This document shows positions 11,273 through 38,811 of a stretch of DNA of 64,000 bases, in pieces. How positions within the stretch are numbered: position 1 is the first letter of the stretch; every line of letters starts with the position of its first letter. The notes below the pieces were generated by a model. That model saw nothing but the letters and a program-made list of their open reading frames with translations. It was not told where the DNA came from and ran no database searches. Source of the stretch: Syntrophaceae bacterium UBA2188 (GTDB taxonomy: Bacteria > Desulfobacterota > BSN033 > UBA1163); NCBI GenBank assembly GCA_002327985.1, contig DCVM01000012.1:29-64028 (forward strand), read 5' to 3'. Both the position numbers and the translations under genes were made by a program.

Positions 11273-11289
11273 TTAGATACCCCAGGTTA

Positions 11290-16103: not shown

Positions 16104-16135
16104 AGATGGACGATTACTCCGTTGTCCCCTCTTCT

Positions 16136-17515: not shown

Positions 17516-17548
17516 TTCCCTTCCATTTTCTTCTGATTCCTATTTATG

Positions 17549-18862: not shown

Positions 18863-18914
18863 ACTTACACAAAAAATGGCTCGCTATGCTTGCGAGGCAC
18901 AATAGGGTGGATCA

Positions 18915-19979
18915 TCAATTTTCCTTTTTGCCGTAACCAAGCCTTTCTCCCATGTGCCGACCTGGTTTGAGTAATTCTAACGGTTTCACTTGAAAAGACT
19001 CCTTTATCCCCAAGACTTCTGTGATAGCATCTGCTATATCCTGGGGTTGTGGTAAAGCATAGCACTCCATGAAACCGCCGGGGATCGGGGAATTCGCAGC
19101 CCCAACCCTTTTAATTGGCGCATCCAGGTAATCGAAACCTTTTTCCATAAACTGCATTCCGATCTCAGCTCCCACACTACAGCGCAGCGTGTCTTCGTCA
19201 ACAATAACCAATCGATGCGTCTTTTTAACAGACGATAGGATGGTCTCGATGTCAAGGGGTTCAAGCGTTCTTGGGTCAAGAACCTCCACATCCAGACCTT
19301 TCTCCTGTAATTGGTCAGCCACTTGCAGTGTCATAAAGACCATTAGCCCTGTGGCAACAACAGTCACATCTTTCCCCTCTCTCTTGATATCTGCCTGTCC
19401 GAAGGGGATGGTGTACTCCTCCTCAGGCACAAGGCCCGATGTCCCTGCGCCTACAAGAATCCGATGATAAAGGACGACAGTAGGGTTATTATCTCTGATT
19501 GCCGTCTTTAAAAGTCCTTTGAGGTCATAGGGAGTGGTGGGGATGGCAAGCTTCAATCCCGGGGTATGCATGATATAGCCCTCAAGGCATTGGGAATGCT
19601 CTGGGCCACCACCTCCGAGATATCCCCCAATTCCGGCCAAGAAAGTGACAGGAATGGTAACCTTACCCCCATGGATGTAACGCCACTTGGCTGCTTTATG
19701 AAACAGTTCATCAGCAGCAGGCATGAAGAAATCAACAAATCGGGAGTGGACGATCGGTCGATAACCAGCCAACGCCGCCCCCACACCACAACCCAGGATT
19801 CCCGGTTCGGCTATGGGCACCTCTCTTAACCTCTTCGTACCGAACTTTTCTACCAAACGCACGGGCGTTAATATTGGATCAGCCTGGACATTCAAGCCGA
19901 TGATGAATACTGTTTCATCCCTCGTCATTTCTTCTTCAAGAGCTTCAATAATGGCCTGTACGAATTTAATCTCTCGCAT
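18915..19979 (-). CDS. acetoin-dehydrogenase-type E1 beta subunit, copy 2
   Basis: MREIKFVQAIIEALEEEM... transketolase-like beta subunit, 354 aa. Confidence 0.85.
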   Translation of the reverse strand: MREIKFVQAIIEALEEEMTRDETVFIIGLNVQADPILTPVRLVEKFGTKRLREVPIAEPGILGCGVGAALAGYRPIVHSRFVDFFMPAADELFHKAAKWRYIHGGKVTIPVTFLAGIGGYLGGGGPEHSQCLEGYIMHTPGLKLAIPTTPYDLKGLLKTAIRDNNPTVVLYHRILVGAGTSGLVPEEEYTIPFGQADIKREGKDVTVVATGLMVFMTLQVADQLQEKGLDVEVLDPRTLEPLDIETILSSVKKTHRLVIVDEDTLRCSVGAEIGMQFMEKGFDYLDAPIKRVGAANSPIPGGFMECYALPQPQDIADAITEVLGIKESFQVKPLELLKPGRHMGERLGYGKKEN

Positions 19980-19999
19980 TTTTTCAATCTTCCTTTCTA

Positions 20000-20983
20000 T
20001 TATTCAGCATAGAGAGCTTTCTTTAATATTTCCTTCGGATCGGTCGGCATTGGATCTGCCCAAGCCAAACGATCTGCCTCCTCCATCTCGTTTGCTGCCC
20101 CACCATCGATCTTTTCTATATCCACCTGGGTGAGAACTCCTTCTTTCAGTAACCGTTTTTGCGCCAGTTTAATCGGATCCCTTTTTCTCCAAACCTCGAT
20201 TTCCTCTTGAGTACGAGGCCTTCCTAATAAGGTATCGGGAAGGCCTACGGCGTGAGGCTGAATGCGATAGGTCTTGCATTCAATCAGGCTAGGCCCTTCG
20301 TCCGCTCTCGCCCGATCTATCGCGGTCTGGACTTCCTTGTGGACTGCAAAAACATCCTGCCCATCCACGACTTTTGCAGGGACACCATAACCAAAGCCTA
20401 AATCAGCAAAATCGTCTTTTGGATGAATTATTTTAACAGGTGTATTTCCCATAATTTGATTGTTCTCGACAATAAATAGATTAGGAAGCTTCCACGTTGC
20501 AGCCATGATCATTGATTCATGGAAAGTCCCCCGTGCATAGGTCCCCTCTCCTTCGATCACCATGACTACCTGCTTTTTTCCCCGCAATTGCGCCGCAAGC
20601 CCCATTCCGACAGCAAGGGGAAAATGCCCACCGAGTGTCCCGCTCATGCCCGGAATGCCCAGCTTCATATCACACGTATGAAATCCACTAACACCATCGC
20701 AGCAGCCGGTAATTCTACCATAATGTTCTGCCAAGATGATCCTGGCAGGGAGGCCCTTAATCAGAGTCTTACTGATGGCGTGCCCCCGGTGAGAAGGAAA
20801 AAGATAGTCATCCTCCCTTAGAAAACTACATGCACCGACTCCTACAGCCTCCTGACCCTCACCACTATGAAAAAAGGTTGAAATTTTACCCGTCAGCAAG
20901 GCTTTCACCATCGTCTCATCCAGCTTCCGGACCCGCACCAGATTTGTGTAGAGTCGTATCTTTTGCTCCTTGGTCAGATCCAT
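20000..20983 (-). CDS. acetoin-dehydrogenase-type E1 alpha subunit, copy 2
   Basis: TPP motif GEGTYARGTFHES...VENNQ; start placed at MDLTKEQ (RBS AAGGAGGGG) by homology with copy 3. Confidence 0.8.
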   Translation of the reverse strand: MDLTKEQKIRLYTNLVRVRKLDETMVKALLTGKISTFFHSGEGQEAVGVGACSFLREDDYLFPSHRGHAISKTLIKGLPARIILAEHYGRITGCCDGVSGFHTCDMKLGIPGMSGTLGGHFPLAVGMGLAAQLRGKKQVVMVIEGEGTYARGTFHESMIMAATWKLPNLFIVENNQIMGNTPVKIIHPKDDFADLGFGYGVPAKVVDGQDVFAVHKEVQTAIDRARADEGPSLIECKTYRIQPHAVGLPDTLLGRPRTQEEIEVWRKRDPIKLAQKRLLKEGVLTQVDIEKIDGGAANEMEEADRLAWADPMPTDPKEILKKALYAE

Positions 20984-21152
20984 AGCCCCTCCTTTTATGC
21001 GTTTTTTGTCCCTAATCATTTTAAATAAACTTTTGTACGAAATATCTTAATCCACACCTTGAATATCAAGGAACTTTGTTCACCTTTTCCGCAATGTCCT
21101 TGTAGTCATGGATGCGGAGGATGATATCTCCCATCCGCTTTATCTCCGTACT

Positions 21153-22217
21153 CTAATTTTGTTTTACCTTTGTGATCCCTAAATCACCGAATGCTTTAAC
21201 AGCGTCAAATCCAACTTTTTCTTTCTTCATATCACTAATATCCATATCTTTGCCCAAGACTTTCAGAATAGCAGCAGCGATGTCTGGGGGTTGAGGTAAA
21301 ACATGTTCCTCTAAGTACCATCCTGCGGGAATGGGACAATTGGCGGCAGCCACCCTCTGGATCGGAGCGTCAAGGTAATCGAAAGCCTTCTCCATAATTT
21401 GCATGCCGATCTCCCCAGTCACACCGCATCGCAAGGTATCTTCATCGACGATCACCACTCGCTTCGTCTTTTTTACAGAAGTGACGATCGTGTCAATATC
21501 AAATGGCTCAAGCGTCCGTGGGTCAATGACCTCTACACTAATTCCCCTCTCCTGGAGTTTATTCGCCACCCCAAGACTCAAATCAACCATAAATCCTACT
21601 GCAACCACCGTGACATCTTTTCCTTCTTTTTTAACATCCGCCAAACCAAACGGGATCGTATACTCTTCATCAGGGATCTCACCTTTTTTAGTTAATAAAA
21701 GCTTATGATAAAGGTAAACTACAGGATCATCATCTCGAATGGCTGTTTTTAAGAGGCCCTTCGCATCATAGGGTGTCGTCGGAATAGCAATCCTCAATCC
21801 TGGTGTATGCATGATGAGGGATTCTACGGACTGTGAATGTTCCGAATCAGACCGTATATACCCGCCGGTGGATGCCATATAAACAATGGGCATTTTCAAC
21901 TTCATACCATGAGTAAACCGCCATTTGGCTGCCTTGTTACATATTTCATCTCCTGCGATGAGAAAGAAGTCGCTAAACATCAGCTCAGCAATGGGGCGAT
22001 ACCCCGCTAAGGCTGCTCCTACAGCTGCCCCTGCAATAGCATTTTCACTTATTGAGGTATCTAATACTCTGTCTTTACCAAATTTCTCAAATAAACCGTT
22101 TGTATGGGGAAACGTCCCTCCCCTCACACATTCTCCAAAGATAAAAACAGTCTCGTCTCTTTTCATCTCTTCCAAAAGAGCCTCATTAATGGCCTGAATA
22201 AATCTAACCTCTCTCAT
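21153..22217 (-). CDS. acetoin-dehydrogenase-type E1 beta subunit, copy 3
   Basis: MREVRFIQAINEALLEEMKRDETVFIFG; roughly 65% identical to copy 2 by eye. Confidence 0.85.
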   Translation of the reverse strand: MREVRFIQAINEALLEEMKRDETVFIFGECVRGGTFPHTNGLFEKFGKDRVLDTSISENAIAGAAVGAALAGYRPIAELMFSDFFLIAGDEICNKAAKWRFTHGMKLKMPIVYMASTGGYIRSDSEHSQSVESLIMHTPGLRIAIPTTPYDAKGLLKTAIRDDDPVVYLYHKLLLTKKGEIPDEEYTIPFGLADVKKEGKDVTVVAVGFMVDLSLGVANKLQERGISVEVIDPRTLEPFDIDTIVTSVKKTKRVVIVDEDTLRCGVTGEIGMQIMEKAFDYLDAPIQRVAAANCPIPAGWYLEEHVLPQPPDIAAAILKVLGKDMDISDMKKEKVGFDAVKAFGDLGITKVKQN

Positions 22218-22236
22218 TTTGGCTCCCCCTTTCTTT

Positions 22237-23211
22237 TCATTTCCAATAGAGAACCTGCTTCAATATCTGAGGATCGGGTGCTGGACTCTCAGTCGCAAAT
22301 CTCTCTGCCTCCTCCATCTCCTCTATTGCTTCTCGATCGATCCGGTCTACATCTGCCTGGGTTAGGACACCCTCTTTGAGGAGTCGCTCCTGAAAAAGGT
22401 TTACCGGATCCTTTTTCACCCAAGGTTCGATTTCCTCCGGAGACCTGAGTCCTGCACATCTTTTATCCACCATGCCATAGGTATGGGGTTCGATACGATA
22501 AGTCTTGCATTCTATCAAGCTCGGCCCTTCTCCAGCTCTCGCTCTCTCTATAGCAGTTTGAAATGCTTCAAAGACTGCAACGACATCCTGTCCGTCAACC
22601 ACTACTCCAGGCATTCCATAACCAAAAGCTAAATCCGCCATGTTCTCTTTTGGAAAAATATCGCTGGTCGGGGTGAAAACCATATACTGATTGTTTTCAA
22701 CTCCCCACACAATAGGAAGCTTCCAATTTGCCGCCATCAGTGCAGCTTCATGGAAAGTCCCCCGACCATAAGTCCCGTCTCCCTGTATACAAACTACCAC
22801 CTGTCCTTTAGCTCGCATCTTGGCAGCAATACCCATTCCGGCAGCCAGGACAAAGTCACCTCCTAATGATCCGCTTAGACCAGGGGCACCATATTCCATA
22901 TCCGCAACATGAAGACAGCCCATACCCTGGCATGCACCGCTATTTTTGCTGAAGTGCTCTGCGATAAAGGCCCTGGGTGAGATACCTTTTGGGATTACCG
23001 TAGTAATACCGTGCCCTCGATGACAAAAAAAGATATAGTCATCCTTTCTTAAAAAAGTGGTAGCTCCAACACCAACCGCTTCTTGACCTTTTTGGCTACT
23101 CCAGTGCCCGCAAACCTTCCCAGACAAAACGCCTTTCACCATTATTTCATCAAGCTTCCGGACTCGCACCAGATTCGTATAGAGCTTCATTTTCTGTTCC
23201 TTTGTTAGCAT
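22237..23211 (-). CDS. acetoin-dehydrogenase-type E1 alpha subunit, copy 3
   Basis: GDGTYGRGTFHEA...VENNQ TPP motif; start at MLTKEQ with RBS AGGAGG 8 nt upstream. Confidence 0.8.
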   Translation of the reverse strand: MLTKEQKMKLYTNLVRVRKLDEIMVKGVLSGKVCGHWSSQKGQEAVGVGATTFLRKDDYIFFCHRGHGITTVIPKGISPRAFIAEHFSKNSGACQGMGCLHVADMEYGAPGLSGSLGGDFVLAAGMGIAAKMRAKGQVVVCIQGDGTYGRGTFHEAALMAANWKLPIVWGVENNQYMVFTPTSDIFPKENMADLAFGYGMPGVVVDGQDVVAVFEAFQTAIERARAGEGPSLIECKTYRIEPHTYGMVDKRCAGLRSPEEIEPWVKKDPVNLFQERLLKEGVLTQADVDRIDREAIEEMEEAERFATESPAPDPQILKQVLYWK

Positions 23212-23260
23212 ATATCTACCTCCTAACCACATTTCTCTAAAAATTAGTTTCGATTTATAA

Positions 23261-24220
23261 TCATGTGTGTGAAAAGAGTTTTAATCCCTTCGCCAACCCA
23301 TGGAATCTATAAATCCAACCTCCGTCTAAACCGCCAACGGTTATATAGCCCTCATCTGTTTCTGGCTTGAATGCTAAATTGGTAGTCAGAAGGTTCTTTC
23401 CTTCATCTCGACCTGGTATTAAAACCTGAGCCACCGGAATAGCTGCTTTATTTAGGACCAGAATTCTTCCATGCCCTGCAAGAGTTTGATAGACGTTACC
23501 CTCTGAATCGACAGCGTTCGAGTCAGGCATTCCATCTCCCATAAAATTGTAAGCAACCGTAGCCGGAGGGTGAGCAAGCGATATTCCATCTTGCTGTATT
23601 TTTATATGAATTAATCGATTCAAAGCTGACTCAGCCACCCAGAGTTCATACCCAAAGGGAATGATGCTTGGCATTGAAACTCCTTTTGGGACTAGAGAAA
23701 TTCCATTGGCCGTCACAAGATTTGTAACAATCGGGTGGACTGTCTTTAGATCTGCCGAAAAACGGTAAACACCACCCGTTAGACTGAAGGCGTTTTTAAA
23801 GTCTCCGAGATCGGTGACGTAGAAGTTCCCATCATAGTCAAAGACAATATCATCCGGAGCTATGGGTTTACCTTCGTACCTTACTTTTATTTCCCTCATA
23901 TTACTCCCATCCGGATTCATCGCCATCACTTGCCCTGAAGGACAAACCAAATACAACCTTCCATCCTTATGGATAGCACATCCAGCAGCCATGTAGGCTG
24001 GGTTGCTGAAGATTGTACTCATCTTTTTATCTGGTGTGATCTTAATGACACGGCCTTCAACGACCGAAGTGATGAAGAGGTTTCCTTCTCGGTCGAATGC
24101 AGGAGCTTCAAGAATGGATGGATAGGGATTGATTTGTAACCAACATTCCGCCATGATTGTATAAATACTTTCTTCGGATGGTGGGATAAGAACTAAATCT
24201 TTTTTCGCTTTTTCTCCCAT
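23261..24220 (-). CDS. SMP-30/gluconolactonase/LRE-like beta-propeller protein (putative lactonase)
   Basis: 319 aa; repeated hydrophobic-G-D/N blade pattern (DREGNLFIT, DYDGNFYVTD, DSEGNVYQT) typical of SMP-30/strictosidine-synthase-like 6-blade propellers. Confidence 0.6.
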   Translation of the reverse strand: MGEKAKKDLVLIPPSEESIYTIMAECWLQINPYPSILEAPAFDREGNLFITSVVEGRVIKITPDKKMSTIFSNPAYMAAGCAIHKDGRLYLVCPSGQVMAMNPDGSNMREIKVRYEGKPIAPDDIVFDYDGNFYVTDLGDFKNAFSLTGGVYRFSADLKTVHPIVTNLVTANGISLVPKGVSMPSIIPFGYELWVAESALNRLIHIKIQQDGISLAHPPATVAYNFMGDGMPDSNAVDSEGNVYQTLAGHGRILVLNKAAIPVAQVLIPGRDEGKNLLTTNLAFKPETDEGYITVGGLDGGWIYRFHGLAKGLKLFSHT

Positions 24221-24274
24221 TTTCGCTCTCCTTTATTTAACGTTTAAATCAATGTTATAATGATGAAATAATAA

Positions 24275-25063
24275 TTAGGCAATGAAGCCTCCATCCTGGA
24301 CAAATGTTTGCCCTGTCACATAACTCGACGCATCAGAGGCTAACCAAATAGCTAATCCCTTAATTTCATTTGGCTCAGCTACCCGTCCCATGGGTGTAAA
24401 TTTAGCGAATCTTTGAAGGTAAGGTTCTGCTACCTCTCGGGGTATAAACGTGGACTTGGTATCATGAGTCCCTGGTGCAATCGCATTGATTCGAATCCCA
24501 TCCTTAGCATAGGCAACTGCCGCATGCCTTGTGAGAGCAATAATACCAGCCTTAGACGCCCCATAAGCATATATATTGGGGGCAGACCATTCCCAACACC
24601 CAGCCATCAGCCCGGCTACAGAAGCCGTGCTAATGATAGACCCTCTTTTCTGCTTTAGCATCACGGGTAAAACGGCGCGCATGCAGAGAAATGTCCCCTT
24701 CAAATTAATGTTAATGCATGCATCCCAATCTTCAATCACAAGTTCATGAAGTCTTTTTTCAATGGAATGGCACCAACCGGCATTATTGAACAAAATATCG
24801 ATGGTTCCGAATCCTGATACCGTCTGATTGACCATGCGCTCGATCTGGTCCGGTTTGGATACATCCGCCTCAATGGCTATGGCACGATGTCCAAACCTCT
24901 TTATGTCATCAACGGTTTCATCGGCAAACTTTTTGTTGATATCAGCACAGGCAACATCCGCCCCAAACTCAGCCATGGCCTCGCAATATGCCCGGCCAAG
25001 CCCGTGACCTCCTGCTGTAATCAGGGCAACCCTTCCTGAAAGATCAAAAATGTTCTTTTCCAT
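24275..25063 (-). CDS. SDR family oxidoreductase
   Basis: ITAGGHGLGRA Rossmann motif, YGASKAG catalytic Tyr/Lys. Confidence 0.85.
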   Translation of the reverse strand: MEKNIFDLSGRVALITAGGHGLGRAYCEAMAEFGADVACADINKKFADETVDDIKRFGHRAIAIEADVSKPDQIERMVNQTVSGFGTIDILFNNAGWCHSIEKRLHELVIEDWDACININLKGTFLCMRAVLPVMLKQKRGSIISTASVAGLMAGCWEWSAPNIYAYGASKAGIIALTRHAAVAYAKDGIRINAIAPGTHDTKSTFIPREVAEPYLQRFAKFTPMGRVAEPNEIKGLAIWLASDASSYVTGQTFVQDGGFIA

Positions 25064-25081
25064 AACGAGACTCTCCTTATC

Positions 25082-25852
25082 TCAGCAGAGTGTAAAACCT
25101 CCGTCTACAGCCAAGTGACAACCCACAACGAATGAAGCCGAATCGGAGCACAACCACACCACTGCTTCAGCGATTTCTTCTGGTAAGGCTATCCGTCCGA
25201 TCGGTGTTGCCATTGCCATTTTTTCGAGGTCTGGATTCAAAGCTGCCAGACGCTCTACCCCTGGCGTTTTAGTAGCACCTGGCTGAACAGCATTAACACG
25301 GATGCCAAACCTGGCATATTCCAGGGCTGCTGTTCGTGTCAGTTGCAATACACCTGCTTTTGCAGCATTGTACGGAGCATTTCCAATACCAGCTTTTACA
25401 GCAGCCCCTGAAGTGGTATTAACAATGACTCCAAATTTCTGCCGGAGCATCAATGGAATCTCATATTTCATGCATAGCCATACACCTTTCAAGTTGACAC
25501 CTATGGAGCGATCCCAAAACTCCTCCGCGATATCAGCAGTAGGAACAATATCCTGAAGGGATGGAGGTATCAGTCCGGCATTATTGTGTGCAAAATCTAA
25601 ACGTCCATAGGTGTCAACGATTTGTTTAATCATTTCTTCCACATCTCTTGCTTTAGAGACGTCACATTTAATAAACAATGCTGTTCCACCAGCTTCTTTG
25701 ATTTGGTGGACCGTTTCTTCGCCACCCTCTACAACAACATCGGCCACAACCACTCTTGCTCCTTCCCTGGCAAACAGCAACGCAGTGGCTCTCCCTATTC
25801 CCGAGCCTGCACCTGTGATGAGAGCCACTTTGTCTTTGAACCTTGGGGTCAT
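25082..25852 (-). CDS. SDR family oxidoreductase
   Basis: ITGAGSGIGRA, NNAG, YNAAKAG motifs. Confidence 0.85.
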   Translation of the reverse strand: MTPRFKDKVALITGAGSGIGRATALLFAREGARVVVADVVVEGGEETVHQIKEAGGTALFIKCDVSKARDVEEMIKQIVDTYGRLDFAHNNAGLIPPSLQDIVPTADIAEEFWDRSIGVNLKGVWLCMKYEIPLMLRQKFGVIVNTTSGAAVKAGIGNAPYNAAKAGVLQLTRTAALEYARFGIRVNAVQPGATKTPGVERLAALNPDLEKMAMATPIGRIALPEEIAEAVVWLCSDSASFVVGCHLAVDGGFTLC

Positions 25853-25913
25853 AATTCCTCCTCAGAATAAGCACTCACGTTTATGCTTCACCACTGCAAC
25901 CTTTCAAGTTTTT

Positions 25914-27356
25914 CTATTTCGCCTTTTTTGCGAAACTATAGATGTCAATGTCATCGCGCTTCATTGTTGGCGACGGCACGACTAACATCCTATTAAATGT
26001 AGAATGAAGATCCACGTAGTCTCTTTGAACACCCGAAGCCATACAGACAAGGCCGATATCGGGGTGAAAAGTTGGTATATTGGTACTGTCGCGGTACAAG
26101 CGCCCCTTCCTGTCATAGTTTTCAGCATACAAGAGGAATAATGTTTCTTTATCAAAATAGAGGATTCGTTTGCTATAGACATAGTTTTTATCCAATTGAG
26201 TTAACTTAACCACATAGACAGGCCGTCGCTCGAACTCCATGTTCGCCCATTCATATCCTTTCTTCGAATTAAGATAGTATGCCCCATCCATATCAGAGGC
26301 TATAAACAGGTATTCTCTTTCACCAACCAGCTCATACTGGTATGGGTAATGGTTGGGAGATATTTTTTGATCAAAGCCCTCATTATCATCCGTGATGCCA
26401 TCCTGTCCTCCCACCACATCCTGGGTATCTGTTGCCGACATCTTTCGAATACGCCTGATCGCACTAACGTATAGCATCGCACCATCTATCTTGTCGGCAT
26501 CTAAGTAATAGGTGAGTCCAATGGCACTTCCATATAAATCTCTCGGAGCAAGATATGCATATATGGCACCTTTATCCTCCCGCATATCCTTGGCTCGTTT
26601 ATCATACCATCCATAAGGTTCAACAAAAACCCGCCCTTTAAGCTTAATCTGCGTCATCAGTCCCGTACCATCGCTATCTATCTTCAGATTCTTGTTAAAT
26701 CCAATCGGTATGGTGTACCCATACATACCGTCCGCATAGGTGTAACGTTTCTTCCAATTGTAGATGATCTGCTGGGCTGCAAATTTTCCGGATGGCCTTG
26801 GAAATGGATAGCCGCTGATGTAGCTATCTTCAATAATGTAACCCTTATCGTCAAGCTTGGTACGTCCCATATTCTCTTTCGTCGCCTTAGCGAGAGGAAG
26901 GGTCCAAAAATACTGCCGCGTGGGAATCACCTTAAACTCCGAAAAATTCCCAACATGAGGCGGTCCACCAGGTTTAAAAAAGCGCTCATATAATGGGGGT
27001 AACATTAGCTCCTTAAGGCCAGGGTATTTGTCCCTGTCTTGATAGGTGTAGGTGCCCGGTTTAATCTCCGGGGCAATCTTGCCCACCATATCCGGAGCCC
27101 TAAACCCAACCACATCCGCCCAGGCTCTTTTCATCGCCTCTATGTCATGGGTCATCTTCGAATAGTATTCAGGTGGGATGAGTTTATTCATGGGCAAAGC
27201 TTTGTAAAGTGGGCGCGGGTCATCAAAAATGGCCTTTGCCCCTTTAAGTCCATCGTGGGTGACGGTGATTTTTTGGCACCATGCACTGGGTGCCAGGATA
27301 AACAGTCCTAACAAGAGGACCAAAGTCACGATGAAAAACATCTTCGTCTTTTCCAT
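25914..27356 (-). CDS. DUF1329 family secreted protein (LolA-like lipoprotein-sorting-like fold), signal peptide
   Basis: 480 aa, N-terminal signal peptide MFFIVTLVLLLGLFILAPSAWC; size, composition and genomic pairing with a DUF1302-like gene and an SSD-RND transporter match the DUF1329 family. Confidence 0.65.
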   Translation of the reverse strand: MEKTKMFFIVTLVLLLGLFILAPSAWCQKITVTHDGLKGAKAIFDDPRPLYKALPMNKLIPPEYYSKMTHDIEAMKRAWADVVGFRAPDMVGKIAPEIKPGTYTYQDRDKYPGLKELMLPPLYERFFKPGGPPHVGNFSEFKVIPTRQYFWTLPLAKATKENMGRTKLDDKGYIIEDSYISGYPFPRPSGKFAAQQIIYNWKKRYTYADGMYGYTIPIGFNKNLKIDSDGTGLMTQIKLKGRVFVEPYGWYDKRAKDMREDKGAIYAYLAPRDLYGSAIGLTYYLDADKIDGAMLYVSAIRRIRKMSATDTQDVVGGQDGITDDNEGFDQKISPNHYPYQYELVGEREYLFIASDMDGAYYLNSKKGYEWANMEFERRPVYVVKLTQLDKNYVYSKRILYFDKETLFLLYAENYDRKGRLYRDSTNIPTFHPDIGLVCMASGVQRDYVDLHSTFNRMLVVPSPTMKRDDIDIYSFAKKAK

Positions 27357-27413
27357 CTTTATCTCCTTTCTTTCAGCTTGGATTCATCTATGGTTAAACC
27401 TGTGATGGAGCCT

Positions 27414-28937
27414 TTAGCCCCACTTGTAACTGACCTTGAAATAGATATAATCCTTGTTTTCAAACAACTCGAACCCTTGCCCTTCCTTCTTTCCATACAG
27501 GAAACATGATCCCAAAGTGAAATGCCATTTGTTACTATAGTCATAGACCAATTGCAGACGGAAGAAGTCTGACTTGGAGTTGACATCGTGTAGCCAGAAG
27601 AACGACGGGGTCAATTTGTTGTGAAAGTAGGATGTATTGATCATCAAGGTCGTCTGGTAGTTGTTTTTCTTTAAACCCGAAATCTCTTCGATGGATGGAT
27701 AATCATTTATTCTCCGATAGTAGAATTGTGGCGAGATCATGAAATAGGTATTCGGGTTCAAGAAGGGAATTCTCACTTTCCAATCCACCCCAATAGCCCC
27801 ACGAAACTCATCTGATTTTTTAAATCTGGAGATGGGTGTTCCCGGTGTTCCAAAAGCAAACGTGCTATCAAAGGCGTACAAAGTCTCCAAACGCACAACC
27901 GGAGAAACACCTCCCAAGAAGGAGGCCCTCAAGGGGGTAATATCCCTGGAAAAGGTAGCCCCCACAAAACGAAAAAGTGGATACTTGCCTTCCATGAGGG
28001 GGTGAAGGATCAAGTTCCCATCGGAGGCAAAAATATCTGGCGGAAGCGGGGAAAGATAAGGAGGAATAAGATTTGTCACCGGGTCATTATCCCGACCATA
28101 AAACGCATTCAATGTAATGACGGAGTCGTATACGACCCCTTTAATTCTGAATGCGAATTCATTCCCTTCTCTCCATCTCTTTGGCTTATCAATCATCCCT
28201 GTTCTAATCATTGAACCCATATGGGGTCCAGAAAGCGGAATATCCGGTGCCCAAATCCCTCCATCATCGTTGCCAATCATGATCCCCTGATTAGGAATGA
28301 AATCTGGGTTGGGGTTATAGACAAATTCGAGGTTCAGACTCTGGATCCAGGTCGGCTTGATGGGCAAATTGTACTCAGTTCTAATGAGCCAGATCGGAAT
28401 GATATTTGTCTCAAATTCTACATCGGCAAACCCTCGACGCTGGTCCCAAGGATTAATCTGATCCATGAGCCGGAAACCGTCTGTCTCACCCCAGTTAACA
28501 ATTTGCTTTCCTATTCGGAACATGAAATCTCCTGGGGTCCAGGTAACATGGGCCTCTTTCAATAATTGCCAGTACTTATCATCCACATTTAAGTTCTTAT
28601 AGGATTTGTTAAACAATTTTTCATTCCATGAACTGTCCTTATGTTTCAACTGGTAAATCCAATCCACGGTGAGCATGCCTGAGGCATAGAATTTAAGACT
28701 CTTCATAGGCGTATAATCGCCTTCCACAAAAAGGTTCATCAGGGCAGAATTTAAACCTTTTTCAGTATCATATTTGTCCCTATCGAGCAGACTAAAGGAT
28801 GCCCCCTGAGTCGCATATCCAAACAAGTTGAGAGGCTTTCCGAGCACTGTAAACTGCTCGGCCATAACAGGAAAACTTGATAAGGCCATGGTCAGTACGA
28901 CTATCCAAAATAAAATTAAAAATCTTTTCTTTTTCAT
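27414..28937 (-). CDS. DUF1302 family outer-membrane protein (putative beta-barrel)
   Basis: Signal peptide MKKKRFLILFWIVVLTMALSSFPVMA, about 500 aa, aromatic-rich, ends in Y-K-W-G-stop beta-barrel-like terminus; start at MKKKRF with RBS GAAGGAGGGAGGGG. Confidence 0.65.
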   Translation of the reverse strand: MKKKRFLILFWIVVLTMALSSFPVMAEQFTVLGKPLNLFGYATQGASFSLLDRDKYDTEKGLNSALMNLFVEGDYTPMKSLKFYASGMLTVDWIYQLKHKDSSWNEKLFNKSYKNLNVDDKYWQLLKEAHVTWTPGDFMFRIGKQIVNWGETDGFRLMDQINPWDQRRGFADVEFETNIIPIWLIRTEYNLPIKPTWIQSLNLEFVYNPNPDFIPNQGIMIGNDDGGIWAPDIPLSGPHMGSMIRTGMIDKPKRWREGNEFAFRIKGVVYDSVITLNAFYGRDNDPVTNLIPPYLSPLPPDIFASDGNLILHPLMEGKYPLFRFVGATFSRDITPLRASFLGGVSPVVRLETLYAFDSTFAFGTPGTPISRFKKSDEFRGAIGVDWKVRIPFLNPNTYFMISPQFYYRRINDYPSIEEISGLKKNNYQTTLMINTSYFHNKLTPSFFWLHDVNSKSDFFRLQLVYDYSNKWHFTLGSCFLYGKKEGQGFELFENKDYIYFKVSYKWG

Positions 28938-29107
28938 AACCCCTCCCTCCTTCTTTTTTCTCTCCATGGTTTGATAAAAAAACAATAATCTCTTCCTCTT
29001 CCCTATCCCAATTCGACCCTCAATAATTCCACTTCACCCCCTTTCCTAAAATAAACTTGCCCGTGTAGCGTGCCCGTAAATCCTCTATAGCCTCAATCTC
29101 TTTCTTT

Positions 29108-29195
29108 CACCCCACCCTCATCCTCACTCCATCAAGGGGGAGAGGGATCTTTGGCCTCTCCCCCCTCTGGAGTGGGTTAGGGGTGAGGAAATGAG
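29108..29195. repeat. long imperfect inverted repeat / GC-rich stem-loop in the RND-DUF1302 intergenic spacer
   Basis: Core 10-bp perfect stem GGGGGAGAGG (29136-29145) / CCTCTCCCCC (29155-29164) around a 9-nt loop, flanked by further imperfect complementarity (cactcca / tggagtg; cctcatcctcac / gtgaggaaatgagg). Confidence 0.5.
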
Positions 29196-29211
29196 GAAAG
29201 AGACGAAATGT

Positions 29212-31629
29212 TTATGAAGAGGTTTGTGCAATGGCTACTCCTGCCTCGGCTGTATTGTCTGCCGTTAATGCAGCCTTTCTTATAAACTTCGGCTTGATGA
29301 TATAAATCAATAAAGGATGAAGGGTTAAGGTGAGAAGGACGTTTGCCCCTAAGATGATGGCAAGAAAAAAACCCATCTCCCCTTGAAACTTCATATCTGA
29401 AAATACATACCACGTCAGGACTGGTAAAATGATCGTCAACCCGGTATAGACCACTGCCTTGCCGGTCGTACAGACGGACTGGATAATGGCTTGTTTCCAA
29501 TCGCCCCCTTGAAGAGTGTATTCTTCCATGCAACGGCTATAGAGGTAGATACAGAAATTGTCTCCCACCCCCACTCCTACTGCAGCAATAGGAAGCGTAT
29601 TGATTGAAAGACCAATATCCATTAAGGCCATATAGGCAAAGGCCATACTATTAGCAAAAATCAAGGGAAGGGTCACCATGAGACCACCCGTAATAGACCT
29701 AAAAGAAATACAGATGAGGATAAAGATGGCGGCAAGGACGCTTGAATCAATCAGGGCATGGGCTCGTTTCATCTCCTCATTGACGCCGATTTCCATCCCA
29801 ATTCTCCCACCCGCTAACTTAAATTCTCCCTTCTCGATATTCATGGGACGGTCCTTAAAAAACTCATAGGCAGCATCACGAATACGAAGCAGATTCTCCG
29901 AGGTATGATCCGAAAAGTAGAGAATGACTTGAGCTCGCTCCAGATCTTCATCAACAAAACGACGCAAGACAAACGGATCAATGTCTTTACGGACATAGCC
30001 CATGAGTCCTTTAAACATCAAAGCATTTTGCGGCATCTGGTACCAAAGCTGATCCCCGTCGTGTAGCATCAGATTCACCATGTTCACGGTGTTGGCCAAA
30101 GTATTCGAAGACTTGTAAATATCGGGCAGCCTCTCTTGCATGTGCCTTGAAAACGCATCAAAGGTCGTCAACACCGCCGGGTTATAAACCGACTCTTTCT
30201 CTCCCTCGTAGAAAAGCATCAAGTTCTCCGACGATGCATCAAAGAGATGGTTGATGAGCTTCTGATCTTGATTATAAGGATGGCTTGGCCATAGAAGAGG
30301 GGAACCAGGAGTAGGATCTCCAATTTTTAGCCCGCTTATCGCCCAGCTAAAAAAGATCATCGCCCCAACGATCAATCCCCCAACGGCATACCGGCCCGAC
30401 CCGATGGAAAAACTGGTCACCTTGGTAATGGCCCGAGCCTGCCAATCCATTTGACACTTTTCTTTTGCATACCGATCGCTTGCCACTTTTAGCGGGAGCA
30501 CACTACAAATAATGGGAACCATAATGCCCGTCAACCCTGTGCTGAATATCCAAAACCCCATGATGATGGCCAGATGCTGCATCAGGACAATCTTGGCAAA
30601 ACTCAATACCAGGAAACCAGCTGCATCCGTAAAGACCCCTGTCCAGTTGGGAAAGAGCATGGTCCGCATGGTCTCATAACTGGCACGGAGCCGATCCCCG
30701 CCACTCGCATTAAGTTCTTCAAAATAACGATGGGTGATCTGAACGGAGTTGCTAATGAATCGGGCCCCTACAAAAAAGGCCAGAACATAGAGGAGGGGAC
30801 TGAAGTTGATTCCTGTAAAACCCACAAATCCCAGCCCTATTACAGTAAGAATCGCCGCATCCATGATCGGAACAATCATCCCCATTACATTGCGAAAGAT
30901 GATGTAGAGGATCAAGATCATCAACGCAATACTGATACCAAAAACAAGGTAGGTCTGGTACTTCAGGCTGTAAATCCAGCCCATCAACATGGGAAACCCA
31001 ACAATATGAACGGAGGTCTCCTCGTCGGTATATTCTTTGACTAATTTTCTTAAAAGGCTGAAGGCTTTCCCATAAGAGATGTTTTCCTTAAAATCGGTCA
31101 ACAACAGGGCAGCGGTTCCATCGCTTGACACCAGGGTGCCGTTATAGGCAGGATTGGAAAAGATGTTTTGCTTCAATAAGGCCATTTCTTCTGGGCTGTT
31201 AGGAGGATCTGGCCACATCAGGGGCTCAATTTTTATCTCACCTTTTCCTAATGTCCTCACCACTTTGGTCGACCGGCTTGCAATCGATACGGTCAAACTC
31301 CGATACACTTCATCCCACAGCACCACCTCCTCGGTCATCTTCGAAATCTTGTCCAGAACCCCCCGGGTAAAGATATCCCCCTTCTTCGTCTTAATCGCGA
31401 TGGCTACCGTCGAACCCCCACTCCCAAACACTTCTGAAAACCGAGCATGAAGTTTAAGATAAGGATGATCATAGGGAAACAACTCATGCAGAAGAACCTC
31501 CCCCCGAATCTTGAAAACCCCATACAAAAAGACCCCTGTGATCACCAAAATAGTTATCAAAACAACCCATTTGCGACTTACCAAGTACCAACAAATGCGG
31601 TCCAGTCTTGTTTTATTGTGGCCAACCAT
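29212..31629 (-). CDS. RND superfamily exporter, MMPL/SSD-type (12-TM, two large periplasmic loops)
   Basis: About 805 aa; two hydrophobic 6-TM bundles each following a large soluble loop; resembles HpnN/MMPL-type RND transporters rather than AcrB. Confidence 0.75.
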   Translation of the reverse strand: MVGHNKTRLDRICWYLVSRKWVVLITILVITGVFLYGVFKIRGEVLLHELFPYDHPYLKLHARFSEVFGSGGSTVAIAIKTKKGDIFTRGVLDKISKMTEEVVLWDEVYRSLTVSIASRSTKVVRTLGKGEIKIEPLMWPDPPNSPEEMALLKQNIFSNPAYNGTLVSSDGTAALLLTDFKENISYGKAFSLLRKLVKEYTDEETSVHIVGFPMLMGWIYSLKYQTYLVFGISIALMILILYIIFRNVMGMIVPIMDAAILTVIGLGFVGFTGINFSPLLYVLAFFVGARFISNSVQITHRYFEELNASGGDRLRASYETMRTMLFPNWTGVFTDAAGFLVLSFAKIVLMQHLAIIMGFWIFSTGLTGIMVPIICSVLPLKVASDRYAKEKCQMDWQARAITKVTSFSIGSGRYAVGGLIVGAMIFFSWAISGLKIGDPTPGSPLLWPSHPYNQDQKLINHLFDASSENLMLFYEGEKESVYNPAVLTTFDAFSRHMQERLPDIYKSSNTLANTVNMVNLMLHDGDQLWYQMPQNALMFKGLMGYVRKDIDPFVLRRFVDEDLERAQVILYFSDHTSENLLRIRDAAYEFFKDRPMNIEKGEFKLAGGRIGMEIGVNEEMKRAHALIDSSVLAAIFILICISFRSITGGLMVTLPLIFANSMAFAYMALMDIGLSINTLPIAAVGVGVGDNFCIYLYSRCMEEYTLQGGDWKQAIIQSVCTTGKAVVYTGLTIILPVLTWYVFSDMKFQGEMGFFLAIILGANVLLTLTLHPLLIYIIKPKFIRKAALTADNTAEAGVAIAQTSS

Positions 31630-31646
31630 CGACATCTCCCTTACGC

Positions 31647-32669
31647 TTAATACTTAATCCGCTCCCAGGTCGTTGAAGAATTAAGGTAGATAGCCCCTCT
31701 CCACCCCACTGCTACAAATCCAGAATTACCCCGCGGAGCAAGTCCATAAATCCAACCATACTTAATAGATGGCCTAAATTCTGGAGTCTGCCAGGTCTTC
31801 CCACTATCCTCAGAAGATAAAAACGTCCCACTCCCCCCAACGAAAATTTTATCTTTCTTGTCAGAAGTGATACTAAAAAGCTGGGTCCTCCGTGCCCCTG
31901 TCACCACAGGCTCCCACGTCTTCCCCCCATCCAACGTCTTGGTCACATACCCATCTATCCCCACCGCCCACGCCGTCTTCGGATCCAAAACCACAACGTC
32001 AAAAAGATAGGTTCCCCCTATAATCTCCCCCGTCTCCCTCGATATCCTAAACTCCCCCGCCTGCTTCTCCCATGTCACCCCTCCATTACTGGTATGGTAA
32101 ATATACCCATACTCCCCAACCGCCCATCCATGAAGGGCATCACAGAATGAAATAGCCTTAAGGATATAGTCCTCACCACTGAATTGTTTGCTCCAGCTCT
32201 TACCCCCATCATTCGTAAATAAAATCGTGGTCCGCTCAGTAACAATCCATCCTTTTAAGACATCTACAAAAAATACATCCATCAGAAAGTCGGATATGGG
32301 AGATTTCTGCTTCTCCCATGTTCTACCCCCATCTACCGTACGTATGATCGTCCCCTGATCCCCCACAGCCCAACCCTGTTTTGAATCCACAAAATGAATT
32401 GAGCTCAACGCAAAACGCGTGCCGCTGCTCTGACGTTCCCAAGTCTTCCCCCCATCCCTGCTATAAAGAATAGTCCCCCAACGCCCGCAAACCCACCCCT
32501 CTCTCTCATCTGGGAAACTCACCGAAAAAAGATCATCATATAATTTGTTGGGCTGCCCTCTAAGGTTTCCAAATAATAGAAAACAAAATATAAAATTCAT
32601 TCCCAGAAATACATGGAATACATATATAAAGCGTTTAAAAAAAACCCTATAATAAATTGTCCTTTTCAT
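31647..32669 (-). CDS. BNR/Ycf48-like beta-propeller repeat protein, N-terminal TM/signal
   Basis: Repeated S/TxDGGKTW motifs (RDGGKTWERQ, VDGGRTWEKQ, NDGGKSWSKQ, SNGGVTWEKQ, LDGGKTWEP, EDSGKTWQT). Confidence 0.75.
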   Translation of the reverse strand: MKRTIYYRVFFKRFIYVFHVFLGMNFIFCFLLFGNLRGQPNKLYDDLFSVSFPDEREGWVCGRWGTILYSRDGGKTWERQSSGTRFALSSIHFVDSKQGWAVGDQGTIIRTVDGGRTWEKQKSPISDFLMDVFFVDVLKGWIVTERTTILFTNDGGKSWSKQFSGEDYILKAISFCDALHGWAVGEYGYIYHTSNGGVTWEKQAGEFRISRETGEIIGGTYLFDVVVLDPKTAWAVGIDGYVTKTLDGGKTWEPVVTGARRTQLFSITSDKKDKIFVGGSGTFLSSEDSGKTWQTPEFRPSIKYGWIYGLAPRGNSGFVAVGWRGAIYLNSSTTWERIKY

Positions 32670-33062
32670 TTTTCCCTTTTCCTCTTCAAAGAAGAATGTT
32701 GCTTATATCAGATGCCACGTTTGCCGGGAATTTAGTTTATCATAATCTTAAAAAATATATTTAGAGCAAGCGCTCGATTTATCTGCTACCATATCTCAAA
32801 AAGTTTGTCAAGAAAAAAATTAGGCTGTGTTAACCAATGAAAAACGTACCTGCCAGAGTGTACGGGATAGTTTTAATTAAGGCACTAAAGGATTAATTTA
32901 GGGGGGATATAAAAGAATTTGGCCTATTTAGTAAGCTGAAAGGGTACAAGAATCAATTGAATTGAGGAAAAAAGGGTTGATCGATTAGAATACTGAAATA
33001 CCCTCTGCCTCATCTTTTAAAGAAGTCTCCAGAATAAATTTATGGGTATCTAGCTTGAATCG

Positions 33063-36000
33063 CTATTTAAAAGGCTGAGAAGACCTTTTTGTCGAGCTAT
33101 TTTCTTTCTTCAACAGACCTTTCATTTTTTCCTGAAGATCATCGAGCAGCGTGTAGGCCACTGGAACGACAAAGAGGGTGAGCAGCGTCGAGGCAAACAT
33201 CCCCCCAAAGGTTGCTCTGCCCATCCCCGCTCTTGCCTCACCCCCTGCACTATAGCCCAAGGCCACCGGAAGAACTCCCAACATGGTCGTCACAGCCGTC
33301 ATTAAAATGGGCCGAAGTCTGACAGGAGAGGCCTGAAGGACAGCCTGATCCCTTTCTGTTCCACGTTCTCTTAACGTATTGGTATAATCAACCAACAAGA
33401 TGGAATTCTTCACCACCAGGGCGGTCAGAGTGATCATACCGATCATACTCATTATGGAAATGGTATCGCCCGTCAGATAGAGGGCACCGAAAGCCCCTGC
33501 CGTACTTAAGGGCAACGCCAACATCACTGACAGGGGATGAAGGAAGCTGTTGAACTGCATGGCCAGGACCATGTAGATGATCACGACAGCCTGGATCAGG
33601 GCAATGATCATATATCGAAAGGATTCTTTGAAAACCTCTGCTTGCCCAGTGAAAGCGTAAGAATACCCTTCTGGAATATATTTCTTAGATAGAGCCTCCA
33701 TCTCCAAAATGGCCTCTCCCAGGGCCTTGCCTCCTGCTGTATCAGCGTAGATCGTTGCACTCCTCTGCCGGTCCTTCCGGTTGACGAGATTGGGACCGAT
33801 CCCTTCTTCGACCTTCACGACCTGGGCAAGTTTAATCAGACCTCCTTTGGGGGTTCTAATAGAGATCTGAGAAATGTCTTGCGGATTCATTCTCTGATCT
33901 CTGATCAGCCGGACTCTTACATCATAGCGTTTCGCCCTTTCCACATCCTTAAACTTTGAGACCTCTTGACCACCTATCAACTGCTGAACGGCGGATGAAA
34001 TCTCACGAATATCCAGTCCCACATCAGCAGCCCTATTCCGGTCGATCAGCACCCTCACCTCGGGCTTTGTAAGTTCAAGATCAGAGCTGATATCGACCAT
34101 GCCCGGACTCCTCATCATTTCTTCCATAATTTGGCCGGAGATCTTCTCAATCGTCTCCATTTCCGCTCCTTTAATATCCAACTGCAAAGGCGCCCCTCTT
34201 TTGCCTCCTGAACCAACGGGCGAAATATCTTCTACGTAGGCTTTGAACCCGGGCATTTCCTGTAACTTCTTTCGCAGATCACCCATAATTTGCTGCTGGG
34301 ACCGTTTCCTTTCTTTTCGGTCTTTCAAACTGACAACGACAATCCCTTTATTGACCTCTTTACGTTCTCCAATTCCAATGGCGGCAAAGACTGCTTCAGC
34401 CTCTGGCAGGGAAAGTGTAAGATCTTCCAGCCTTTGCAGACTTTCATCTGTATCGTACAATGTTGAACCGGTCGGCATCTCAAGACGGATGATAAAACGA
34501 CCTTCATCGGACTTGGGGATGAATTCACTCTTCAAATTTATTAAAAGCGCAATACTTCCTAAGAAGATCCCGGTTGCAATAACGATGACTAACCAGCGGT
34601 GTCTTAGAGAGAAGGCCAACGCCTTTCGGTAGCGATCTTCAAGTCTCCCATAAGATTGATCAAAAAATTGATAAACCCTTCCGTGTTTCGATTCCAGCTT
34701 CAAGAACTTTGAACAGAGCATGGGGATAAGGATGAGGGCAACAACCAGAGAAGCGATTACAGAAGCGGCTACTGTGACGCCAAACTGGTAGAAGAATCTT
34801 CCGATGATTCCTCCCATGAAGGCTACCGGAAGAAACACCGCTGCGATGGAAAAAGTTGCGGCCATGGCCGCAAAGGCAATTTCTGAAGTTCCCTTTTTCG
34901 CCGCCCCGACTGGATCAGCCCCTTCCTCCATATGCCGATAGATATTCTCCAGGACAATAATGGCATCGTCGCAAACCACCCCGACCATCATCGAAAGGGC
35001 AAGCATGGTAAAATAGTTCATGGTAAATCCCATGAAATGCATGATGCCAAAACTGGTGATGAGAGATGTAGGGATGGAGACAGCCGTGATGATAGTGCTC
35101 CGAACGTTCAGTAGGAAGATGAACATAATCACTGCGGCAAGGAGCCCTCCGATGAAAACATCCTCTGTGACCCCCCCGATAGCCTCTTCAATGAATTTGG
35201 AGGAATCAAAGGAGATATGGATATCAACTCCCGGGGGAAGAGTCTTCTTGATTTCAGCAAGCTTTGCCTTAACGGCTCCCGCCACTTCTACGACATTGGC
35301 GCCCGATCTTGGGATCACCCCCATTCCTATCGCCTGAATCCGATCATACCGGGCAATGGTTCTCACGGGCTCGGTTCCATCCTCTGCCCATCCCACATCG
35401 TTTAAACGAATGGGAGCCCCATTCTGATAGGTGATGATCAAGTTATTGAACTCTTCGATATTTCGTAATTCACCCAGATTTCTAACCGTGAACTCACGAC
35501 GAACGCTTTCAATGATTCCGCCCGGTAATTCAATATTTTTTGCAAGGAGCGCTCTCGATATATCGGCCGATGTTAATCGATGGGCCTCCAGTTTCTTTCC
35601 ATCCAGCCATATCCTGATCTCCCTTTTCGCGAAGCCCCCTAACATAATTGATCCAACACCTCTGATGGATTCAATTTGGGGTCTCAACACCTCATCAGCC
35701 AACATGCCCAGTTTTGAAGAAGGTTGATTTCCTGCCACCGAGAGCCAGAGAATGGGTCTTGCATTGATGTCGAGCTTGTCGATAATGGGAGGGTCGATAT
35801 CCATGGGCAATCTTTTCTTCGCCACATCCACTTTCGCTCTGACATCCTGAACAGCGGAATCAATATCGCGGTAAAGTTCAAACTCCACAACAACCTGCGA
35901 AAACCCATAACCGCTCGTGGAGGCAATATGCTTCACCCCTTCGATGGTGTTGACCTGCTCTTCAATCGGGTCTGTGACATCGGTATCCATGACCTCCGGC

Positions 36001-36164: not shown

Positions 36165-36173
36165 AAAAAACTC

Positions 36174-36267
36174 CCAAAAAACTAAGTCGAATAGTCACTT
36201 AGCCTTTTAGTCATATAGTCCCTTATCTCGTCGTCTTTTCACAGACCATACGACTATCTGACTATGC
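36174..36267. repeat. cluster of short GACTA/TAGTC direct and inverted repeats in the adaptor-pump intergenic spacer
   Basis: CTAAGTcgaatagtcACTTAG inverted repeat, then tagtcatatagtc and gactatctgactatgcgacta; at least 6 copies of the pentamer in about 95 bp. Confidence 0.4.
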
Positions 36268-36306
36268 GACTAAGGAACTTTCAATCCATGAACTCTATCT
36301 CTTATA

Positions 36307-37416: not shown

Positions 37417-37487
37417 TCTCTCTCTTCTAAAAAGCTTGTCTGTTTAAGGTTCATTGTTGATCGTTCATTGTTCATCGTTCACCGTCT

Positions 37488-38807: not shown

Positions 38808-38811
38808 TAAT

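Follow-up and report, generated by a model that had tools for sequence, protein, structure and literature searches.

Syntrophaceae bacterium UBA2188 carries a four-gene cell-envelope module on contig DCVM01000012.1 of GenBank assembly GCA_002327985.1; the window analysed here is the whole 64,000-nucleotide stretch at positions 29 to 64,028 of that contig. An earlier reading made from the DNA letters alone (the original prediction) had placed in it four consecutive genes, for a propeller protein, an RND transporter, a DUF1302-like outer-membrane protein and a DUF1329-like secreted protein, and all four score above their Pfam thresholds. The module runs from 32669 to 25914 with every gene on the minus strand, and each open reading frame (ORF) coincides exactly with its predicted coordinates. 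The first gene (31647-32669) encodes a Ycf48/BNR-like beta-propeller of 340 aa that is AmeC-like and PhnL-like (PSII_BNR PF14870, E 5.8e-34, with BNR repeats besides); the Ame and Phn proteins belong to the Castellaniella and Delftia systems compared below. It is followed by an AmeD-like RND transporter of the MMPL/HAE3-like kind (29212-31635; 807 aa, 805 in public gene calls; MMPL PF03176, E 1.4e-26, 93.7 bits versus a cut-off of 20.5), by an AmeA-like DUF1302 outer-membrane beta-barrel with a signal peptide (27414-28937; 507 aa; PF06980), and by an AmeB-like secreted DUF1329 protein, also with a signal peptide (25914-27356; 480 aa; PF07044, E 2.2e-36, together with LolA_like PF17131). Both DUF memberships, for which a profile check had been proposed, pass that search (53.7 bits versus 23.2 for DUF1302, 126.4 versus 23.1 for DUF1329). 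The DUF1302 ORF reaches to 28985 (27414-28985, E 2.5e-14), and its true start is the ATG at 28937, which has a GGAGG motif ahead of it and gives a length of 507 aa in agreement with public gene calls. No second copy of any module gene was found within the window.

By hydropathy the propeller, the DUF1302 protein and the DUF1329 protein each have one N-terminal hydrophobic segment, and the propeller is predicted to be periplasmic or membrane-anchored. A crude hydropathy profile of the pump agrees with the 1+5/1+5 layout of RND proteins, its two periplasmic loops measuring about 190 aa each. Two residues of its membrane domain, R292 and D693, are nearly invariant among 39 homologues, and such conserved residues would fit proton coupling. 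The best NCBIfam match of the pump is TIGR00921 HAE3 (E 3.4e-31, 108 bits against a cut-off of 351.9). Searched against solved structures, the single pump sequence gave no match and a pump profile matched MmpL3 and MmpL4 only (E 2e-8, about 100-150 residues of the membrane domain); the DUF1302 sequence gave no match in such a search. The label 'SSD-type' that the pump had been given finds no support, as no sterol-sensing-domain family is among its Pfam hits at E<=0.001.

Several more specific identities were tried and rejected. The propeller falls well short of the Ycf48/HCF136 equivalog (NF010237, 131.9 bits against 326) and shares the fold family alone. The pump is neither an HpnN hopanoid transporter (TIGR03480, 31.8 bits against 751.85; no HpnN chain in the solved-structure profile search) nor a mycobacterial MmpL of the actII/MmpL type (TIGR00833, 86.6 bits against 874.7; the solved MmpL3 and MmpL4 match the membrane domain only). 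A tripartite HAE1 pump of the AcrAB-TolC type is likewise rejected, with neither a membrane-fusion protein nor a TolC-like factor among the four genes.

The LolA-like fold that had been proposed for the DUF1329 protein is borne out by its AlphaFold2 model (pLDDT 88.6, pTM 0.87). In Foldseek searches about 280 C-terminal residues of the model resemble LolA3 of Porphyromonas gingivalis (9tp6, E 8e-16, target TM 0.79), followed by 3bk5, the DUF1329 crystal structure 4z48 (TM 0.67) and 3buu, then by LolA, RseB and MucB; the modelled C-terminal part is thus predicted to be a LolA-like half-barrel with the fold of the LolA/LolB superfamily. The N-terminal part of about 170 residues had no structural match in Foldseek. 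The DUF1302 model is a beta-barrel whose best structural matches are Occ uptake channels including BenP, with AlgE also among the top matches, so that a structural likeness to the 18-strand channels of the Occ/OprD and AlgE kinds is present. Residues 148-179 of the barrel protein contain the most conserved motif of its subfamily, WGETDGFRLMDQINP.DQRRGFADVEFE, and form the sole long stretch with pLDDT below 50 in the monomer model. The stretch is a candidate for a plug loop or for one that binds a partner.

An array of about 32 kb, co-directional and with short spacers, begins with the module: 11 nt between the propeller and pump genes, 57 nt between the DUF1302 and DUF1329 genes, and 61 nt from the DUF1329 gene to the first gene downstream. 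Genes in the same direction continue unbroken down to at least 15375. The pump-DUF1302 spacer is longer (274 nt) and holds a long and stable RNA hairpin on the minus strand (29092-29208); a 172-nt fold of the spacer reaches -73.5 kcal/mol (z -4.3), a stability attained by 0 of 200 shuffles. This spacer is also the longer one in relatives (median 88 nt versus 13.5 nt for the propeller-pump spacer), and strong structure is seen in some of them only, for example at locus L024 (z -7.7). The hairpin might decouple expression of the outer-membrane pair from that of the inner-membrane pair. A REP-like repeat was rejected as its identity, there being no convincing second copy within the window.

Ahead of the module a non-coding spacer of 393 nt (32670-33062, minus strand) parts it from an AcrB-type pump gene and is presumed to be a regulatory region. 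A consensus scan for promoters and terminators over 22000-33200 gave fewer sites than shuffled sequences and no convincing sigma-70 site on the module strand of this spacer, and therefore no promoter is claimed. Directly upstream lies a complete tripartite efflux system (33063-39444, minus strand), consisting of TetR, a TolC-like outer-membrane efflux protein (OEP), a membrane-fusion protein (MFP) and the AcrB-type pump. The same locus is present in four public assemblies, among them contig DHFU01000081.1 of the metagenome-assembled genome (MAG) GCA_002402385.1.

The module is not confined to this genome. Homologues of its DUF1329 protein reach 72% identity at best and lie mostly at about 50%. 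A profile search of 1.84 billion cluster representatives returned 1,488 DUF1329 homologues at E<=0.001 and 151 at E<=1e-30. A scan of species-representative genomes yielded 79 loci in 42 assemblies (loci carry L numbers below); their ORFs were called and then labelled by phmmer against the window proteins, and completeness was judged in the 53 loci with enough flank. The complete four-gene set was found in 40 of these 53, and because the four genes recur jointly so often their arrangement is no chance juxtaposition. The exact gene order of the window occurs in 30 of the 79 loci (32 when two with an extra BNR or RND fragment are included), the outer-membrane pair is placed first in six of the 79, and the DUF1302-DUF1329 pair stands alone in 12. 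Nearly all loci belong to Thermodesulfobacteriota (Syntrophorhabdaceae, Syntrophaceae, Desulfatitalea, Desulfobacula and the isolate Desulfocicer vacuolatum DSM 3385). The original prediction was thus right that the module recurs; its attribution to Proteobacteria does not fit the relatives of this copy, which are Thermodesulfobacteriota and not classical Proteobacteria.

Two loci stand apart taxonomically. A betaproteobacterial MAG of the Rhodocyclaceae (L007) has all four module genes, ordered as in the window and with a DUF1329 protein of 51% identity, and could have obtained them by horizontal transfer. The gene layout in a Pirellulales MAG (L066) is the same as in a deltaproteobacterial MAG (L063), which suggests a binning error or very recent transfer.

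Pfam also confirms the genes that had been predicted directly downstream of the module, all on the minus strand: two short-chain dehydrogenases/reductases (SDRs), a 'lactonase' gene of the SGL family and Aco-like genes, lactonase activity remaining putative. The first SDR (25082-25852, PF13561 E 2e-67) has PRK06172 as its best equivalog (316.7 bits versus a cut-off of 336) and passes the glucose 1-dehydrogenase subfamily model NF005559 (227.6 versus 215); the second lies at 24275-25063 (PF13561 E 2.2e-63). The next gene (23261-24220) encodes a six-bladed propeller of the SMP-30/gluconolactonase/LRE-like (SGL) family (PF08450 E 9.1e-21, 75 bits versus a cut-off of 26.3) and takes no NCBIfam name at its cut-off. 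Then follow, by Pfam, two E1alpha/E1beta pairs, an E2, an E3 and a lipoate-protein ligase, together an Aco/PDH-like thiamine-diphosphate (ThDP) complex (15375-23232). The first E1beta (21153-22217), the only E1beta scanned against NCBIfam, scores 331.6 bits with NF006667 (cut-off 321). After the ligase come TetR, two PimC/PimD-like acyl-CoA dehydrogenases, a third E1alpha/E1beta pair, a zinc-dependent alcohol dehydrogenase (Zn-ADH) and an enoyl-CoA hydratase, and the far end of the array holds an unknown protein, an SDR, two CoA ligases, a BaiCD/FadH-like Fe-S flavoenzyme and a further SDR. Three separate E1alpha/E1beta pairs (10283-12252 and 15375-23232, minus strand) therefore stand against one E2, one E3 and one lipoate-protein ligase.

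The Fe-S flavoenzyme (1031-2986, minus strand; 651 aa) combines old yellow enzyme (OYE) and pyridine-nucleotide-disulfide-reductase types. Its best matches are BaiCD, the mycofactocin FadH/OYE family and bilirubin reductase, none of which reaches its cut-off, and its homologues adjoin the module in at least seven related loci. In a first NCBIfam scan curated cut-offs were reached only by the first E1beta and by broad SDR subfamily models; in a second, of further island enzymes, none of the CoA ligases, acyl-CoA dehydrogenases, hydratase, Zn-ADH or OYE-type reductase did so. The gene set suggests as operon substrate a cyclic, aromatic-derived or alicyclic compound, degraded via hydroxy-ketone or diketone intermediates and CoA thioesters. 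As a route deduced from enzyme families, it suggests SDR oxidation of a cyclic diol or ketol, ThDP-dependent C-C cleavage in which the Aco/PDH-like complexes would act, and then CoA-dependent steps resembling beta-oxidation. The E1 pairs and the additional genes of the relatives hint at cleavage of cyclic ketols or diketones that come from possibly methoxylated aromatic or alicyclic compounds.

Physical coupling of the module to catabolic genes, which the original prediction had stressed, proves to be recurrent. In the two closest lineages (L084-L087, 70-72% identity) TetR, ChsH2-OB, thiolase, CoA ligase and cupin genes precede the BNR, MMPL, DUF1302 and DUF1329 genes; two SDR genes follow, then a third SDR or a corrinoid protein with a URO-D protein, and onward an SGL gene, E1alpha, E1beta, a metallo-beta-lactamase-fold protein, E1alpha, E1beta and E2. 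Both SDR positions are kept in these closest relatives and the SGL gene stands at the same place. Because L084-L087 keep the same order, the coupling seen in the window is conserved, SGL included; the SGL gene is absent from the 79 more distant loci. Genes for E1, E2, E3 or lipoate ligase also lie downstream of the module in six of these (L008, L021, L024, L033, L037 and L082).

Neighbours were also counted by Pfam family, among 263 same-strand ORFs within three genes of the module, in two batches with nearly 150 different families each. The counts are led by SDR (19), URO-D methyltransferase-like (10), thiolase (8) and GerE (7) families, followed by MFS, Zn-ADH and FAD_binding_2 (5 each), by OYE, alpha/beta-hydrolase, ChsH2 OB and TetR (4 each), and by sigma-54 activators (3). 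No lipid-biosynthesis or envelope-biogenesis/housekeeping family is found among the 25 commonest neighbour families of either batch. Linkage to housekeeping envelope functions irrespective of catabolic neighbours had been named as an outcome that would contradict the proposed role; the neighbours are catabolic or regulatory instead.

Copies can be numerous within one genome. A single Syntrophorhabdaceae MAG (CAXXIT01) has 12 loci (L028, L032, L034, L039, L040, L044-L046, L049, L053, L057 and L071) with 13 distinct DUF1329 genes and one propeller-pump pair within 10 kb, and a Desulfatitalea MAG has 11 DUF1329 genes. Those of CAXXIT01 mostly form DUF1302-DUF1329 pairs with no pump within 10 kb, several of them on one 389-kb contig. 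Several of its pairs adjoin MalT/LuxR-type regulators and mostly lie directly downstream of them. Among the orphan pairs of all loci, such an activator is directly upstream in L032 and L057 and downstream in L053, and the pairs of L044 and L058 have partial or related forms of it. In CAXXIT01 the pair of L040 (about 16.4-19.5 kb) is fragmented and may be a pseudogene or an assembly error.

The four-gene system is of an already known type, to which the window adds no new one, and it is no longer correct to call it uncharacterised and without an experimentally defined function, given the deletion and dye phenotypes of AmeABCD, cofitness, and the Pseudomonas putida and Delftia data. AmeABCD of Castellaniella defragrans 65Phen (Puentes-Cala and Harder 2018, PMC6394551) is monoterpene-induced and made up of the same four kinds of protein. 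Its deletion causes poor growth on unfunctionalised monoterpenes, sensitivity to limonene above 5 mM even with acetate, and greater accumulation of Nile Red, and its authors read the system as an exporter (PMC6394551). Likened by family type (DUF1302, DUF1329, COG4447/Ycf48-like, and an RND pump that is HAE3-type in ame and HAE3-like here), the two sets of genes are both adjacent and co-oriented, and both sit within a catabolic island for a cyclic hydrophobic substrate. They differ in gene order (DUF1302-DUF1329-BNR-RND in ame, BNR-RND-DUF1302-DUF1329 here) and in host, which is betaproteobacterial for ame whereas the relatives here are Thermodesulfobacteriota, and the downstream enzymes of the window are unrelated to the monoterpene genes.

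In randomly barcoded transposon sequencing (RB-TnSeq) the four genes are cofit in Shewanella, Kangiella and Pseudomonas, from which export of a cell-wall component was proposed, and DUF1329 genes are listed in phenanthrene, p-cresol and steroid clusters (Price et al., bioRxiv 10.1101/072470). Growth of P. putida on Tween 20 and butyl stearate requires PP_0765/0766 and PP_2018/2019 (bioRxiv 10.1101/2020.07.04.188060; PMC10866462), and the BNR-RND operon includes the putative lactonase PP_2021 (bioRxiv 10.1101/2020.07.04.188060). AlphaFold co-folding of the P. putida proteins points to binding of the DUF1329 protein by either the barrel or the propeller-pump pair (PMC10866462), and a DUF1302-DUF1329 complex received an ipTM of 0.84 in a later prediction. 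The systems of P. putida KT2440, Shewanella, Kangiella and P. stutzeri thus resemble the window in that the same four families act together by cofitness and the outer-membrane pair is separable from the inner-membrane pair; a LuxR-type regulator stands ahead of the PP_0767-PP_0765/6 pair, as for the Syntrophorhabdaceae orphan pairs. The window differs from P. putida in having four contiguous genes joined to a catabolic operon and TetR-type local regulators.

Nearer in lineage and lifestyle is the benzene degrader ORM2a (Desulfobacterota), in which the DUF1329 protein is the fourth most abundant during growth on benzene (PMC13101534). Its 'nanopod' cluster and the Delftia phnL cluster share with the module a porin-like protein, a DUF1329 protein, a Ycf48-related protein and an MMPL transporter; ORM2a is, moreover, an anaerobic hydrocarbon/aromatic degrader of the same broad lineage, and the Delftia genes lie in a hydrocarbon catabolic cluster. 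The ORM2a cluster differs in an inserted universal stress protein and hypothetical gene, in having the outer-membrane pair first, and in forming its own genomic island apart from the putative benzene-activation cluster. In Delftia acidovorans Cs1-4 disruption of phnL (Ycf48-like) lowered extracellular protein by 96%, gave fewer vesicles and nanopods, and lengthened the lag and slowed growth on phenanthrene and not on pyruvate; a DUF1302 protein ranks among the major proteins associated with its vesicles (PMC3958437). A 2026 paper (PMC13101534) credits the Delftia phenanthrene defect to a DUF1329 deletion; the primary report (PMC3958437) has phnL, a Ycf48-domain gene (Delcs14_1758), and we follow the primary report.

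A LolA-fold carrier and an RND-superfamily protein that together move a hydrophobic molecule across the periplasm are also a feature of ApeL/ApeM/ApeN, Lol and the MmpL exporters. The Ape system differs in having a LolB-like protein instead of a large barrel, no Ycf48-like propeller, and a biosynthetic cluster as its context. That an RND protein can work inward is known from eukaryotic cholesterol transport, in which NPC2, a soluble beta-sandwich carrier, hands its cargo to the RND-superfamily protein NPC1. NPC2-NPC1 has no detectable sequence relationship to the module and no outer membrane or barrel partner, and serves as an analogy of mechanism only.

We consider the module, with a probability of roughly 0.85, to be an AmeABCD-type, substrate-dedicated trans-envelope transporter; co-expression with the catabolic operon and a hydrophobic or amphiphilic cargo are well supported as part of this general reading. 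The DUF1302 protein would form an 18-strand Occ/AlgE-like barrel in the outer membrane, and the DUF1329 protein would be a periplasmic LolA-like carrier that docks on the barrel and shields its hydrophobic or amphiphilic cargo across the periplasm. At the inner membrane the Ycf48-like propeller would make up a station with the MMPL/HAE3-like RND protein, loading or unloading the carrier by means of the proton gradient, and delivery could be inward, much as NPC2 hands over to NPC1.

Uptake rather than efflux is plausible, and inward transport for substrate acquisition is the single most likely direction, which we hold tentatively, at a little under even odds. We favour it because Tween 20 and butyl stearate, on which P. 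putida mutants fail, are non-toxic esters, because the DUF1329 carrier is very abundant in benzene-grown ORM2a, because the barrel is most similar in structure to Occ uptake channels, BenP among them, because a canonical efflux pump with its own TetR already lies directly upstream, and because many paralogous outer-membrane pairs are under ligand-sensing regulators, some with no pump nearby. Other points weigh against our interpretation. To our knowledge, all bacterial RND/MMPL transporters so far characterised are exporters. The lower limonene tolerance on acetate and the Nile Red result of AmeABCD, the only targeted study, point to efflux, outward lipid movement has been proposed for the aryl-polyene LolA-like and RND pair (PMC8253772), and mutants in Shewanella amazonensis and P. 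stutzeri are pleiotropic (bioRxiv 10.1101/072470). The physical contacts are inferred from the published co-folding of P. putida homologues, the models made from the window being of single proteins; the copy counts reach 10 kb around DUF1329 hits rather than covering whole genomes, and the neighbour family counts are raw, without a background control.

The same components would also serve an efflux or tolerance pump, in which the RND protein extracts a toxic hydrophobic substrate or an intermediate from the inner membrane and hands it on, by way of the propeller and the LolA-like carrier, for release through the DUF1302 barrel, keeping the membrane load tolerable during degradation. This is the published interpretation of AmeABCD, whose deletion phenotypes (PMC6394551) it accounts for; it also agrees with the precedent of characterised bacterial exporters, with exporters (MmpL3, MmpL4) being the only solved sequence relatives of the pump, with R292 and D693 as fitting proton coupling, and with AlgE, an export barrel, among the top structural matches. 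We nevertheless regard it as rather unlikely, for a complete TetR-OEP-MFP-AcrB system is already next door, tolerance pumps do not usually come as 11-13 paralogous pairs per genome, many with no nearby pump and behind ligand-sensing activators, P. putida depends on the system for growth on esters that are not toxic (bioRxiv 10.1101/2020.07.04.188060), and the carrier is extremely abundant in ORM2a (PMC13101534).

Doubtful to a greater degree is export of one of the cell's own lipids or surface components to the outer membrane, where vesicles, nanopods or surface remodelling would aid access to poorly soluble substrates. The Delftia phnL phenotype and the vesicle-associated DUF1302 protein (PMC3958437) speak for it, as do the proposal of Price et al. 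from cofitness and pleiotropy (bioRxiv 10.1101/072470) and the aryl-polyene precedent (PMC8253772), but the 25 commonest neighbour families of either batch include none for lipid biosynthesis or envelope biogenesis, and one endogenous cargo leaves a dozen divergent pairs per genome, each with its own regulator, unexplained. A constitutive housekeeping envelope system that neighbours catabolic genes here by chance would suit the pleiotropic phenotypes (bioRxiv 10.1101/072470) and the near-universal DUF1302 gene of P. aeruginosa strains (PMC13499233), yet is very improbable in view of the tight co-directional spacing with catabolic genes, the same coupling both in the two lineages of 70-72% identity and, further off, in six loci or more, the many paralogues per genome, and the adjacent TetR, MalT/LuxR and sigma-54 regulators.

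It is largely an open question how poorly soluble or membrane-toxic substrates are carried across the two membranes of Gram-negative degraders, and the four-gene system, met in monoterpene, phenanthrene, benzene, fatty-ester and steroid contexts, lacks an agreed function. The comparison shows that in anaerobic Thermodesulfobacteriota it can reach up to a dozen copies per genome, goes together with catabolic operons of diverse kinds and with regulators that respond to ligands, and has an outer-membrane half that can be uncoupled from the pump half; the multiplication, the catabolic and regulatory ties and the uncoupling speak for a role specific to the substrate. Once its direction and cargo are established, engineered degraders and producers could be given better uptake or tolerance by means of this system. 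The main value of the work is this comparative picture, which makes testable a more speculative idea of import that we think improbable as it stands, namely that DUF1302-DUF1329 pairs are interchangeable substrate-specific front ends with their own regulators, many of them sharing one proton-driven Ycf48-like/RND engine. If true, the import logic would parallel that of TonB-ExbBD with its many receptors, or of NPC2-NPC1, and a bacterial RND system would for the first time be known to work inward, as a main substrate-uptake route of anaerobic aromatic and hydrocarbon degraders.

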